Shown piece after piece: positions 9,527 through 47,537 of a stretch of 64,000 bases of DNA (position 1 is its first letter; each line of letters begins with the position of its first letter). The notes under the pieces were generated by a model that ran no database searches, had not been told where the DNA came from, and worked only from the letters and a program-made list of their open reading frames with translations. Source of the DNA: a bacterium (lineage in GTDB: Bacteria > UBA8248); NCBI GenBank assembly GCA_965261085.1, contig OZ253442.1, forward strand, positions 832,001 through 896,000, in the 5' to 3' direction. Made by a program: the position numbers and the translations under genes.

Positions 9527-10069
9527 ATGAGTGACGTCATCACCGGCCAGGTGGTCTACGACCCTAGAGGGGTGGTCGAGGCCCAAGCGCAACCCACCGC
9601 AAAGCGTGTCCGGAATTTGAAGGGCTTAAAGCTCGGCGTCCTGGACAACACCAAGTGGAACGGGCGCAGGCTGCTCGAGAAGACCACGGCGCTGATGGAG
9701 GCGGAAGGTCCCTTTTCCGAGGTGCATTACTACAAGAAAGAGAGTTTTTCCAAGAACGCGGCGCCTGAGTTGATCGCCCAAATCGCAAAGGAGAACGACG
9801 TCGTCCTGACGGCGATTGGCGACTGAGGCTCCTGCACTTCGTGCTGTATGCACGATGCGATCTCCCTGGAAGAAAAAGGGGTGCCCACCGCCGTGGTGGT
9901 GACGGAGGTTTTCCTGCATGAGGCCCACGTGCAAAGGGCGGCCTTGGGCATGGACGGTCTCGACCCCGTGGTCATTCAACACCCCCTGAGCACGCTTTCG
10001 GATGAGGAAATCTCCGCGCGCGCGAGCGATGCTGCTCTCCAGGCGGTGAAGGTTCTCCTCGGCGGATAG
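9527..10069 (+). CDS. UGSC-family selenoprotein (Sec at codon 100, TGA 9824-9826)
   Basis: ORFs 9527-9826 and 9848-10069 are in one frame and read TAIGD-U-GSCTSCCMHDAISLEEKGVPT. RBS AGGAGG. A SECIS-like hairpin follows. Confidence 0.92.
9834..9858 (+). promoter_or_regulatory. Putative bacterial SECIS element
   Basis: gca-ct-TCGTGC-tgtat-GCACGA-tgc; the loop starts 18 nt after the UGA and has G at loop position 2. Confidence 0.65.
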
Positions 10070-14798: not shown

Positions 14799-15461
14799 AT
14801 GTCCAACATCACCATGCTCGATATCGAGGATTTGAAGAAGACGAAGCTGGCTCCTTTCCTCAACAAGGCGCTCAAGCACCGCGCGCCCGACCCCGCCTTT
14901 CACGCCATGCAGGGCCACAACGAGGAATTGGCGAAATCGATGTATCTCGCCTGGGGCACGGTGTTCAACACCGGCGTCATCGACCACAAGCTCAAGGAGA
15001 TCATCCGCGTTCAACTCTCGCGCCGCGCTTTTTGCAATTACTGAGGGAACGTGCGTTCTGCTTCGGCGAAGCAGGCAGGCCTGACCGAGGAGTTGATAGA
15101 CGAGGGCATCGACAACTGGCGCGACAGCGAGAATTTCACCGAAGCCGAAAAACTCGCTCTCGAATACAGCGAACTTATGGATTCAGAGCCTGAGAAGATC
15201 GACGAGGCCTTCTACGCGAGGCTCAGGGAGCACTACTCGGATGAGGAAATCGTGGAGTTGGGTTCTTTCATCGGCTTCAACGTGGGCTACCACACTTTTT
15301 TCAGAACGCTCGATTTCTACCCCATGTTCTCCCCCGACGGCCGGCTGGTGAGCCAGGAGGAATCGCGCCGCATCTACGGCGATTGTCCCGTCTCGCACAT
15401 GAGCGGCCCGCTTGAGCGTGCTCTCGAAGAGGGCGAAGCGCAGCAAGCCAACGGAAGCTAG
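14799..15461 (+). CDS. AhpD/carboxymuconolactone-decarboxylase-like selenoprotein with CxxU motif (Sec at codon 82, TGA 15042-15044)
   Basis: ORFs 14799-15044 and 15051-15461 are in frame: IDHKLKEIIRVQLSRRAFCNY-U-GNVRS...FTEAEKLAL...LREHYSDEEIVEL. A SECIS-like hairpin follows. Confidence 0.9.
15052..15077 (+). promoter_or_regulatory. Putative bacterial SECIS element
   Basis: tgc-gtt-CTGCTTC-ggc-GAAGCAG-gca; the G-initiated loop is 20 nt after the UGA. Confidence 0.7.
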
Positions 15462-45403: not shown

Positions 45404-45682
45404 TTACTGCTTGTACTCGGGAAGCGTCCTGCTGAAGCCCTCCCGCATGACCCGGCCTTTTTTGAGAACGTAATAACCCTCACCATACCGGATGACGCTG
45501 GTGAGAGGGGGAATCTGGCATTCTTTCGAGATGATCAGGTTTTCCTGGGATTCATCGCGTGGGAGATAGCGCTCCGCATCCCCTTCGGATAGATGAATCT
45601 CGCGGTTACAGGCGCTGGACGCCTTTTCGTATTCGCCTTGCAGCTTTATGGTCTTGCATTCACAAACAATCGCGTTGCTCAT
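45404..45682 (-). CDS. Small hypothetical protein (92 aa)
   Basis: RBS AGGAG before ATG 45682; MSNAIVCECKT...; four Cys residues. Confidence 0.6.
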   Translation of the reverse strand: MSNAIVCECKTIKLQGEYEKASSACNREIHLSEGDAERYLPRDESQENLIISKECQIPPLTSVIRYGEGYYVLKKGRVMREGFSRTLPEYKQ

Positions 45683-45912
45683 CAAGGGTCTCCTGTGCTC
45701 ATTGAGAGCCTTCAGAAAAAGTAGGCCTATGCTAGAAACCAAGCCTCTCGGTGTCAAGACCGTGCGAGACGAAAACGCAGGAATCATCGGCGCGATGGTT
45801 CGGGAGAGGCCCGGTTCGGTTTGAAATGTCCCCATCGCACGAGTATAAGTAATCGCGTTCGGGCCTTATTATTTCAGGCTTGTTTTCGCTTCATCTATTT
45901 CAGGAGGGCGTA

Positions 45913-46416
45913 TTGATTCCACGTATGACGGACAAGATGATCGACTCGGGCGATCCCTTCCCGAGCCTCGAGGTGGACCAGGTGGGAGGCGGCAAAATCT
46001 CCCTACCCGGCGATCTCGCGGACGATTGGGGAGTGGTTCTGTTCTACCGCGGACACTGGTGACCTTATTGCAAGCAGCAACTGACGGCTTTCGACAGGGC
46101 GGCGAAGCTCAAGGAAGAAGGCGTCAAGGTTGTTGCAGCCTCCGTGGACACGGAGGAGAACGCCAAGGGAACGATTGAGGAATGCGGAATCAACTTCCCT
46201 GTGGGCTATGGCTTGGACAACAAGCAGATTTCTGAACTCACCGGTTGTTTCTATGAAGAAAAACGCCAGATCATTCACAGCACGGGCTATGTCTTAAAGC
46301 CCGATGGAACGGTCGCCGTGGCCGTCTACAGCAGCGGGCCCATCGGCCGGCTCGTGTGGCAGGACGTATTGGGCTTGGTCCAGTTCCAAAAGAAGATGAT
46401 GGCGGCCCAAAGCTAG
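45913..46416 (+). CDS. Peroxiredoxin-like (AhpC/TSA) selenoprotein with UxxC motif (TGA 46060-46062)
   Basis: ORFs 45880-46062 and 46144-46416 are in frame: VVLFYRGHW-U-PYCKQQL. RBS AGGAGG before TTG 45913 (alternative start ATG 45925). Confidence 0.92.
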
Positions 46417-46432
46417 CGCGCATCTTTTTGAG

Positions 46433-46470
46433 CACCCCCTCGGGTTTTGACTTCGAGGGGGTGTTTTTTT
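46433..46470 (+). terminator. Rho-independent terminator between the two Prx-like genes
   Basis: CACCCCCTCG...CGAGGGGGTG followed by T7. Confidence 0.8.
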
Positions 46471-46573
46471 GCGCGAAATCCGGGGGGCCGGTTTTCATCG
46501 TTACGCCGGAGCGATAACATCCCGAGTACATGAAACGGACTCGATTATTTCTTGAACAAGAGTGGAGCGTATC

Positions 46574-47098
46574 ATGCCGAAAGCGAACCGGTTCTTCCTG
46601 GACACCGGGGATGATTTCCCGAGCCTCGAGATCGCCAAAGTGGGAGGCGGAAAAATCAGCTTGCCCGATGACTTGCGGGGCTCGTGGGGCGTCGTCCTGT
46701 TCTACCGCAGCCATTGGTGACCCTACTGACTCGCCCAGATGGCGGGATTCTCCCGGGCGGGAGAAAGACTGGAAGCAGAGGGCATCAAGGTCGTGGCGGC
46801 GTCCACCGACCCGGAAGATGAGGCGGTGCAGTCCAACGAGGCGAGCAAGGTGAATTTTCCGGTGGGCCACAGCGTGGACCCCGCCTATATATCCGAGATG
46901 ACGGGCGCTTTCTACGCCCCTGAAGCGGGCGAGAAGCCGAGGCCGTTTCTTCACGCCACCAACTTTCTGCTCTCACCCGACGGCAAGGTGAACATCTCGC
47001 TTTATAGTTCGGGTCCTCTGGGTCGTCTCGTCTGGCAGGACGTCATCCAGGCCGTGCAGTTCAGGAAAAAGCGCATGGCGGCCCAGGCGCAGCAGTAG
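46574..47098 (+). CDS. Peroxiredoxin-like selenoprotein with UxxU motif (TGA 46718-46720 and 46727-46729)
   Basis: ATG 46574 reads MPKANRFFLDTGDDFPSLEIAKVGGGKISLPDDLRGSWGVVLFYRSHW-U-PY-U-LAQMAGF..., in frame with ORF 46739-47098 and collinear with the upstream paralogue. Confidence 0.9.
46730..46765 (+). promoter_or_regulatory. Two tandem SECIS-like hairpins
   Basis: CTCGCC-cagat-GGCGGG (46730-46746) and TTCTCCC-gggc-GGGAGAA (46748-46765). Confidence 0.6.
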
Positions 47099-47104
47099 AA
47101 AAAC

Positions 47105-47138
47105 AAAAAGCCGGCGGGAGACTCCCCACCGGCTTTTC
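47105..47138. terminator. Bidirectional terminator
   Basis: AAAAGCCGG...CCGGCTTTT between convergent genes. Confidence 0.8.
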
Positions 47139-47150
47139 TGGTTCAGTTTG

Positions 47151-47537
47151 CTAGTTCTTGAGACGCTCCGCCACCTCGTCCGCATCGGAGGCTTTGTTGT
47201 AGTCCTGATCCAGCGTGCCGTCGCCCGCCGGGCTCTTGACGGCGAAGAATTTCGCCGGCCCTTCGGTGATGTGGATGCCGTGGCGCGTGTTTCTGGGGAT
47301 GTGGACCAACTCGCCGGGGCCGATCTCGCGCACCTCCTCGCCGCAGATCATGTTCATCTTGCCCTCGAGCATCAGGATGTACTGCTCCTCGTTGGGATGA
47401 AAATGAGGCGGCGGGCCGTCTCCCTGCGGATATATCACCCAGCCGACCTTCATCAACTCGCCCGCGGTCGCGTGGCTGGTGGCGGGACCCACTGCCGATG
47501 AGCCCCGGGGCAAGTCTTCCATTTTGTAAAAGGGCAT
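47151..47537 (-). CDS. Cupin domain protein
   Basis: PPPHFHPNEEQ...HIPRNTRHG. Confidence 0.9.
   Translation of the reverse strand: MPFYKMEDLPRGSSAVGPATSHATAGELMKVGWVIYPQGDGPPPHFHPNEEQYILMLEGKMNMICGEEVREIGPGELVHIPRNTRHGIHITEGPAKFFAVKSPAGDGTLDQDYNKASDADEVAERLKN

Follow-up and report, generated by a model that had tools for sequence, protein, structure and literature searches.

A predicted UxxU selenoprotein gene of Nitrospinaceae with a conserved two-hairpin region downstream of its two UGA codons

Introduction

The closest described relatives of the gene treated here are the "Prx-like thiol:disulfide oxidoreductases" (Prx, peroxiredoxin), a predicted bacterial selenoprotein family characterized by a PF00578 domain, a UxxC or UxxU motif (U standing for selenocysteine, Sec) and one or two Sec residues (PMC13188914, PMC9312934). 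The family entries in these two papers refer to a prokaryotic selenoproteome study of 2004, and UxxU sequences in a Prx-like family are mentioned in an ocean-metagenome study of 2008. Here we describe a UxxU gene, termed paralogue B, that is located at positions 46574-47098 on the plus strand of a 64,000-nucleotide (nt) stretch of a metagenome-assembled Nitrospinaceae genome (contig OZ253442.1, positions 832,001 to 896,000, assembly GCA_965261085.1), hereafter called the window. The question addressed is how a bacterial selenocysteine insertion sequence (SECIS), which is position-dependent, recodes two UGA codons that are 9 nt apart.

The SECIS of Escherichia coli fdhF serves as the bacterial reference, and 11 nt is the figure given for the UGA-SECIS distance in E. 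coli. A UxxU protein forming a diselenide, SelL or SelenoL, has reportedly been described in a study of aquatic eukaryotes. It is said to share with paralogue B the thioredoxin fold, the Prx-like character and a UxxU centre able to form a diselenide, and to differ from it in being eukaryotic and in having its SECIS in the 3' untranslated region. The accessible text of PMC4513850 contains no statement on the UGA-SECIS spacing. According to the published model of the bacterial SECIS (bSECIS), the loop is 3-9 nt long with a G in the first two loop positions, the stem has 4-16 base pairs (bp), the distance from the UGA to the loop is 16-37 nt and the folding energy is -7.5 kcal/mol or lower (PMC13188914, Fig. 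2).

The two-UGA question was raised again, without an experimental handle, in a 2026 study of UXXU-type group 4 [NiFeSe] hydrogenases, passages of which suggest that one downstream SECIS may decode both UGAs (PMC13582414). As in paralogue B, the motif is a bacterial UxxU, the two UGAs are 9 nt apart, and UXXU and single-Sec forms are mixed on the tree. The differences are that Sec is a nickel ligand in the hydrogenases and that their variable UGA is upstream of the fixed one (CXXU to UXXU), whereas in paralogue B it is the 3' UGA of the pair that varies (UxxC to UxxU), so that the SECIS is nearer to it. Moreover, no second hairpin is described in those passages, and tRNA-ReC-like genes are reported there but were not found in the present genome.

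The initial annotation of the locus took UxxU to be best known from SelL and considered this the strongest candidate for a novel system. This part has to be given up, since UxxU is already catalogued for the bacterial Prx-like family in the entries of PMC13188914 and PMC9312934. Paralogue B shares with that family the PF00578 domain, Sec in UxxC or UxxU in place of CxxC, a function that is predicted, and truncation by gene callers; it is placed there by domain and motif rather than by comparison with the reference protein sequence of the reviews. In other words, the protein is not new but an ordinary member of a catalogued family of predicted function. The new detail is the conserved two-hairpin SECIS region together with the repeated Sec/Cys switching at the second site only. 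The review passages on the family are silent on the SECIS of UxxU members, on Sec/Cys toggling and on the tandem paralogues of Nitrospinaceae, and in the main texts of openly accessible articles we found neither tandem nor bridged SECIS hairpins described for bacterial UxxU proteins, and nothing on Sec/Cys toggling in the Prx-like family or on Nitrospinaceae. We regard the locus as a useful, somewhat unusual variant.

Results and Discussion

The reading frame of paralogue B

When TGA is read as U, window positions 46574-47098 (+) form one frame of 174 codons (174 amino acids, aa) that starts with an ATG at 46574 and ends at a TAG at 47096-47098. A GGAG at 46564-46567 (+), 6 nt 5' of the ATG, resembles a ribosome-binding site as judged from the sequence alone. 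The translated active-site context is ...VVLFYRSHW-U-PY-U-LAQMAGFSRAGE..., in which UGA1 (46718-46720, +; Sec49) aligns with the first Cys of the WCPYC motif of Cys homologues, and UGA2 (46727-46729, +; Sec52), which is TGC or TGT in some species, aligns with the second one. Plain calling of open reading frames (ORFs) cuts the gene into pieces of 52 and 119 aa, and the public protein collection holds just the C-terminal, 119-aa piece, both for B and for its orthologues. The initial annotation had described a genuine UxxU thioredoxin-fold ORF with an N-terminus missed by the ORF track, and the translation, the match to PF00578 and the 119-aa database piece all agree with this description. The observation of a gene with two in-frame TGAs three codons apart is thereby confirmed.

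Sec/Cys switching at codon 52

Orthologues were searched for in all 42 genomes of the family. Paralogue B was found in 38 of them, 20 with two in-frame TGAs (UxxU) and 18 with one (UxxC); codon 52 of the single-TGA forms is TGC (17 sequences) or TGT (1 sequence). Genome G016 has only the upstream tandem paralogue A (described below) and lacks B, and there was no match in G024, G027 and G032, which are 87-91% complete. Codon 49, on the other hand, is TGA throughout, i.e. in 38/38 B sequences, 36/36 A sequences and 8/8 distant homologues of the phylum. The UxxU form is spread over five genera (8/21 in g1, 4/5 in g2, 3/3 in g5, 1/1 in g7 and 4/4 in g9) and is absent in g4 (0/1) and g8 (0/2). Two B copies are damaged (L064 in G008 and L063 in G018), one by an in-frame loss that leaves 132 codons and the other by a shifted or truncated frame; both keep an intact hairpin 2 (see below) and TGC at codon 52, and both were excluded from the counts that follow.

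On the maximum-likelihood tree of the 36 coding sequences, which was built with codon 52 left out, the state of this codon changes 8 times, and the well-supported branches alone force at least 5 changes. The nearest relative, G006, whose protein is 97% identical, has TGC at codon 52, and a near-identical strain present in contigs of runs X2 and X5 (two other studies) has a C at 46729. As read from the codons, the second position toggles between predicted Sec and Cys on short evolutionary time scales, and the attacking position never does so.

A metagenome scan gave 8 loci, 7 of them with the gene, and added little diversity: 5 of the 7 copies are UxxU and 2 are UxxC. A 301-nt contig from an RNA library of another study (run X16) keeps the A at 46729 and has 9 other differences; the X runs were compared as assembled contigs, and such a contig does not prove transcription. 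The same run holds a 60-nt contig, at a depth of 1380, that matches just ...YRSHW-U-PY (window 46697-46728) and goes on as TGC followed by a different sequence, in which there is a hairpin of the CGGC-AGUU-GCCG type. The contig probably stems from a strongly expressed UxxC homologue in some other organism of the sample.

The initial annotation had itself raised the objection that TGA2 could be a sequencing error or a strain-specific nonsense change, and had proposed a check of the codon in orthologues and reads; an assembly error or a decaying gene would be of the same kind. The TGC of G006 and of the X2/X5 strains would suit such an explanation, as would the possibility that the only run with an exact match is the one from which the window derives. 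However, TGA is found at this codon in 19 other species of five genera, so that 20 of the 38 orthologues carry it, and it recurs in 5 of the 7 metagenome copies (as contigs) and in the RNA-library contig of the other study, with the frame open and the downstream part conserved. The species comparison rules out an error, a strain-specific nonsense codon or gene decay for all practical purposes.

Two conserved hairpins downstream of the UGA codons

Two adjacent hairpins follow UGA2. Hairpin 1 (46730-46746, +; CUCGCC-CAGAU-GGCGGG) has a 6-bp stem and a folding energy of -7.8 kcal/mol; its loop starts 15 nt after UGA1 and 6 nt after UGA2. Hairpin 2 (46748-46765, +; UUCUCCC-GGGC-GGGAGAA), the proposed SelB-binding SECIS, has a 7-bp stem and an energy of -9.9 kcal/mol, and its loop starts 25 nt after UGA2 and 34 nt after UGA1. 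The hairpins are where the initial annotation placed them, and the distances given there (15, 25 and 34 nt) are correct. The folding energy of the single sequence is unremarkable (z-score -0.76 for 66 nt and -1.57 for 48 nt), so that the support for the hairpins comes from the comparison between species.

Synonymous diversity was calculated for 80 codon columns, each with a degeneracy of 4-fold or more and with the majority residue in at least 25 of the 36 sequences. The median was 0.5, and a value of zero was found in four columns alone, codons 60-63 (TCC CGG GCG GGA), all of which fall in hairpin 2. Of the flanking codons, 64 is likewise invariant (GAA in 33/33 sequences) and 59 is TTC in 34/36 sequences. 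In the 38-sequence alignment used for pair counts (27 distinct rows), 97.3% of the cells of hairpin 2 are paired; the value for hairpin 1 is 84.6%, and 3 of its 6 pairs are changed on both sides. The structure as a whole is 91.4% paired, as compared to 85.5% in shuffled alignments (0 of 500 reach the observed value) and 52-70% when the partners are slid. The lone synonymous change in hairpin 2 among the seven metagenome copies (L133) turns a C-G pair into U-G, i.e. the pair is kept. Hairpin 1 thus covaries and hairpin 2 is nearly invariant at the nucleotide level, and the covariation check proposed in the initial annotation leaves both as conserved structures.

We note that hairpin 2 was missed by RNAalifold, run on a 75-column alignment of B, since a helix without any variation gains nothing from the covariation term. 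An Rfam scan of window positions 45500-47500 with E-values up to 10 gave no SECIS family; its 8 matches are all far below the gathering scores.

The two hairpins differ in how they vary between lineages. Hairpin 2 is carried by 20/20 UxxU sequences, and its sequence is absent, with a different fold in its place, from three UxxC orthologues (G025, G029 and G033, in genera g4 and g8). No third-position change in hairpin 2 was found on 22 branches of the all-UxxU clades, where 14.8 were expected, nor on 14 crown branches of the three all-UxxC clades, where 3.74 were expected (Poisson P 0.024). The loop of hairpin 1 is variable (CAGAU, CAGCU) and has no G at all in three UxxU genomes of genus g5, in which the stem is kept. 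Codon 55, whose third base is the loop G, is CAG in 33/36 orthologues.

Hairpin 2 agrees with the published bSECIS model in every respect and for both UGAs (loop GGGC, 7 bp, 25 and 34 nt, energy below the limit), and its loop resembles the GGUC loops of the AhpD-like genes of the same genome. Hairpin 1 departs from the model in two respects, the G rule (CAGAU) and the 16-nt minimum (15 and 6 nt). What sets B apart from the consensus is the second, covarying hairpin between UGA and SECIS and the distance of 34 nt, which is near the upper limit. Distant single-copy homologues of the phylum have a canonical SECIS at the position of hairpin 1, with an AGUU or AGUUGA loop that starts 16 nt after the UGA.

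Selenocysteine machinery

The genes selB and selA are adjacent on the same 4.27-Mb contig as the window (384 and 579 bits, both above the cut-offs), selC, the gene of tRNA-Sec, is present in one copy (anticodon UCA, 75.9 bits, 8-bp acceptor stem), and selD is found in the genome with an in-frame TGA of its own. Both UGAs of paralogue B would be read as selenocysteine by these host components, SelA, SelB, SelC and SelD.

It could be argued that UGA2 is read in some other way, i.e. as Cys by a SECIS-dependent tRNA of the selC* or tRNA-ReC type, by near-cognate read-through, or as a stop that gives a 51-residue peptide. As TGA is freely exchanged with TGC, Cys evidently functions at position 52, and tRNA-ReC-like genes are enriched in genomes with UXXU hydrogenases, according to the passages of PMC13582414 on these genes. 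We nevertheless consider this improbable. A search of the genome for tRNA-ReC or selC* genes found none: among the 52 tRNAs listed by ARAGORN there are one tRNA-SeC (UCA), one ordinary, 75-nt tRNA-Cys (GCA) and no second long-arm tRNA with a UCA or GCA anticodon, and the remaining RF01852 matches in the genome come from tRNAs for Leu and Ser and from a single odd CCA tRNA. A stop is opposed by the 122 codons 3' of UGA2, whose protein sequence is conserved throughout the 20 UxxU species. Nor is a restart product conserved, since the internal ATG at 46739 (codon 56) is present in only 18/36 orthologues, the rest having Leu.

How the two UGA codons may be decoded

The interpretation that we put first, with about an even chance of being right, is that both UGAs depend on one SelB-binding SECIS, hairpin 2, and that hairpin 1 is a structured spacer which can be melted by the ribosome. 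With UGA1 in the A site, hairpin 1 would be folded just outside the ribosome and, acting as a structured spacer, would bring hairpin 2, 34 nt off in the sequence, within normal reach of UGA1. Three codons later hairpin 1 would be melted by the ribosome and hairpin 2 would be 25 nt from UGA2. Position 52 would thus be served by the SECIS whether it is a UGA or not, and a single A/C change could toggle Sec and Cys freely, which we propose as the explanation of the frequent switches at codon 52.

Several lines of evidence lean towards hairpin 2 as the putative SECIS, namely its synonymous constraint, its fit to the model, the persistence of the constraint in UxxC lineages and its shape, since a stem of about 7 bp capped by a GGNC tetraloop is also the form of some eight AhpD-like SECIS candidates in the genome. 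Hairpin 1 is likewise suggested to be structural rather than a SelB site by its varying loop, which has no G in g5, and by its departures from the model.

A second UxxU gene of the genome is informative in this respect. It encodes an AhpD-like "peroxidase-related enzyme" (G000:C1:1054664-1055260, minus strand, which corresponds to L100:262-861, minus strand; TIGR01926, 95.4 bits vs. 81.8) with the motif GG-U-YG-U-AMNHG, and two in-frame TGAs are present in 24/42 genomes of the family. Only one conserved hairpin is found downstream, 16 nt after the second UGA and 25 nt after the first, which suggests that two UGAs can share a SECIS in these organisms. The AhpD-like family is given as CxxU with one Sec in the table of the review, so its two-Sec form may be unlisted.

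The other arrangement is one SECIS for each UGA. Here hairpin 1 would be ancestral and serve UGA1, its loop G being 17 nt after the codon, and hairpin 2 would serve UGA2 at 25 nt. A UGA newly made at the downstream Cys codon would be too near hairpin 1, whose loop is then 6 nt off and inside the ribosome, and for this reason a second hairpin would have evolved further downstream. We hold this to be possible but less probable than a single SECIS. The points that favour it also weigh against hairpin 2 as the only SECIS: hairpin 1 stands exactly where the distant homologues have their canonical SECIS, with AG at the same nucleotides; its AGAU loop recurs, at the same distance, in another candidate selenoprotein gene of the genome; it covaries; and its loop G, as noted above, is largely kept. 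The distances required, 15-17 and 25 nt, are in or beside the 16-25 nt found in the genome. In contrast, 34 nt for UGA1 is unusual, though within the published range, as the loops of about two dozen hand-picked SECIS candidates of the genome start 16-24 nt after the UGA (an indicative range). Hairpin 2 is missing from three orthologues, all of them UxxC, and present in all 20 UxxU sequences, which is what one would predict if hairpin 2 arose for UGA2. The AhpD-like gene is no obstacle either, as its extra UGA is upstream of the old one and a second hairpin is not needed there.

On the other side, the arguments against separate SECIS elements are the full synonymous constraint on hairpin 2 in all-UxxC clades, the UxxU genomes of g5 in which the hairpin 1 loop has no G, the place of hairpin 1 outside the published model (15 nt from UGA1, with the loop G only in third position), and paralogue A, which has no second UGA and yet keeps a hairpin shaped like hairpin 2. 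Some of these arguments have limits of their own. The constraint test in UxxC lineages is low in power and ignores possible TGA/TGC polymorphism within populations, the distal hairpin of A could serve another function, and SelB binding, Sec insertion and the diselenide are all predictions made from sequence. On the rooted tree the base of the B clade is a polytomy, so that it gives no order for the origins of hairpin 2 and UGA2. Both options of the initial annotation, i.e. a separate hairpin for each UGA or a SECIS common to the two, thus stay in play, and the evidence leans to hairpin 2 alone; the weight not given to these two goes to other arrangements or to a non-Sec decoding.

Paralogue A and a possible bridged SECIS

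Paralogue A, which is directly upstream of B and 57% identical to it, is at about 45925-46416 (+), its start being approximate, i.e. the first ATG that matches the N-terminus of the orthologues. It has the motif HW-U-PY-C with a UGA at 46060-46062, matches PF00578 with 72.8 bits, is present in 36 genomes and is UxxC in every one of them. The single UGA is followed by a conserved RNA structure (window 46068-46156, +), a long irregular stem-loop that starts about 11 nt after the codon. Next comes a 7-bp hairpin, CCUCCGU-GGAC-ACGGAGG (46139-46156, +; -10.4 kcal/mol), 76 nt after the UGA. In shape this distal hairpin matches hairpin 2; 98% of its cells are paired, and 2 of its 7 pairs show changes on both sides at synonymous sites. 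Taken together, the three helices of A have 97.2% of cells paired vs. 43-61% when slid, and the 89-nt stretch folds at -39.1 kcal/mol (z-score -3.8). Unusual GTT GTT codons are conserved in the structured region. No canonical SECIS is evident 16-37 nt after the UGA of A. A hairpin at the codons homologous to hairpin 2 was also considered and was dropped as unsupported, since 75% of its cells are paired and 105 of 500 shuffles reach that value.

As far as the sequences indicate, A has the layout of B on a larger scale, i.e. a spacer of about 11 nt, a folded domain and a 7-bp GGAC hairpin. A tentative generalization, to which we assign a rather low probability, is that Nitrospinaceae use a "bridged" SECIS, in which a helix between the UGA and a GGRC hairpin (the predicted SelB site) folds away the intervening sequence. 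This would amount to 17 nt in B and to about 63 nt in A, where the hairpin is 76 nt after the UGA, and a SECIS far beyond the usual window would still work. In B, unwinding of the helix by the ribosome would reset the distance, so that one SECIS could serve two UGAs in turn.

Protein family, fold and redox centre

The protein encoded by B matches the Pfam family AhpC-TSA (PF00578) with 66.4 bits (cut-off 26) and also Redoxin. None of the NCBIfam models is reached. Membership in the SelL-related family (NF040769, 27 bits vs. a cut-off of 120) and in the selenocysteine peroxiredoxin family PrxU (NF040737, 18.5 bits vs. 270) was rejected on these scores. Full-length Cys homologues, annotated as "peroxiredoxin family protein", are about 158 aa long and about 50% identical and come from Actinomycetota and others; in the 7 that were aligned with both paralogues WCPYC is invariant and matches the W-U-P-Y-U of B.

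The AlphaFold2 model of B (mean predicted local distance difference test, pLDDT, 89.2) has a thioredoxin/Prx fold, in which U49 sits at the N-terminal end of helix 50-61. The structures most similar to the model are those of BCP/PrxQ, 1-Cys Prx and ResA proteins (including Bcp4 and LsfA). In sequence alignments to the solved 1-Cys Prx structures 6q5v and 7kuu, U52 is at the peroxidatic Cys and U49 at the conserved Thr of TxxC, and B has Arg45 in place of the active-site Pro and His126 in place of the Arg. The likeness to Sec peroxiredoxins (TxxU; PrxU) is thus that U52 is at the peroxidatic Cys/Sec position, and the difference is that B has U49 for Thr and that the active-site Pro and Arg are missing. 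A peroxiredoxin proper (1-Cys or 2-Cys Prx, PrxQ/BCP) was rejected as well, as the PxxxTxxC pattern with Arg is not found and the NCBIfam Prx equivalogs are far below their cut-offs. With U49 in place of Thr and the active-site Pro and Arg not conserved, B is, by its predicted active site, "Prx-like" with a thioredoxin-type CxxC centre rather than a peroxiredoxin proper.

The in-frame UGAs of B are in a UxxU motif aligned to the CxxC of Cys homologues, a downstream hairpin fits the bSECIS model and selA, selB, selC and selD are present in the genome. Our best explanation of the protein is a cytoplasmic thioredoxin-fold "Prx-like thiol:disulfide oxidoreductase" of predicted function with its CxxC centre as U49-P-Y-U52. 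The motif suggests that the chemistry is likely a dithiol-type redox exchange via a diselenide or selenenylsulfide intermediate. The U49/U52 centre would cycle between diselenol and diselenide, and species with TGC at codon 52 would have a selenol/thiol and selenenylsulfide pair instead.

Gene neighbourhood and other selenoprotein candidates

A terminator-like hairpin with a U-run is found between A and B (46433-46470, +); it was read from the sequence and is drawn in the Rfam-scan alignment, its loop being too long for the terminator scan. Since it separates A from B, the latter probably has a transcript of its own. A second terminator-like hairpin of 15 bp is 3' of the B stop codon (47105-47138); the call was made for the minus strand, and either strand could form it.

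Apart from these genes, a rough scan of the genome gave many further in-frame TGAs in recognisable redox motifs. The search returned 414 candidates, 46 of which were retained by motif, and 1483 close TGA pairs, all of them noisy; recognisable selenoprotein families were picked by eye and three were checked against family models. At the motif level the candidates include about ten AhpD-like CxxU genes with GGUC SECIS loops, three deiodinase-like T-U-PP, two DsbA-like U-PYC or U-PFC, two OsmC-like and TlpA-like U-xxC genes. Within the window there is a UGSC-family selenoprotein gene at 9527-10069 (+) with a TGA at 9824 (NF041046, 158.7 bits vs. a cut-off of 125); its hairpin has the loop UGUAU, 18 nt after the UGA, and three more paralogues are found elsewhere in the genome. 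A candidate AhpD/YciW-related CxxU selenoprotein (FCNY-U-G) is located at 14799-15461 (+) with a TGA at 15042, its family matches being weak and all below the cut-offs. Among the tRNA genes, an 89-nt gene called as tRNA-Trp (CCA) (L021; G000:C1:1155312-1155400, minus strand) lies in a low-GC stretch, has a long variable arm, a 3-bp D stem and two U-U mismatches, and may be a pseudo-tRNA or an unusual long-arm tRNA. A database paper lists metagenome-assembled genomes labelled Nitrospinota among the bacteria richest in selenoprotein genes, in the passage on this group (PMC13326102).

Conclusions

The locus offers a natural series for the question of how two neighbouring UGAs are recoded. The 38 orthologues vary at the second site through a single A/C exchange, and each of the two short conserved hairpins is open to mutation on its own. 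For comparison there are a UxxU gene with one hairpin and paralogue A, whose single UGA is followed at a distance by a hairpin of like shape. If the bridged SECIS is true, the strict position rule of bacterial Sec decoding would be relaxed, and there would be a simple route from UxxC to UxxU. Finally, the toggling between Sec and Cys at the resolving position, and never at the attacking position, bears on the question why selenium is used at all.

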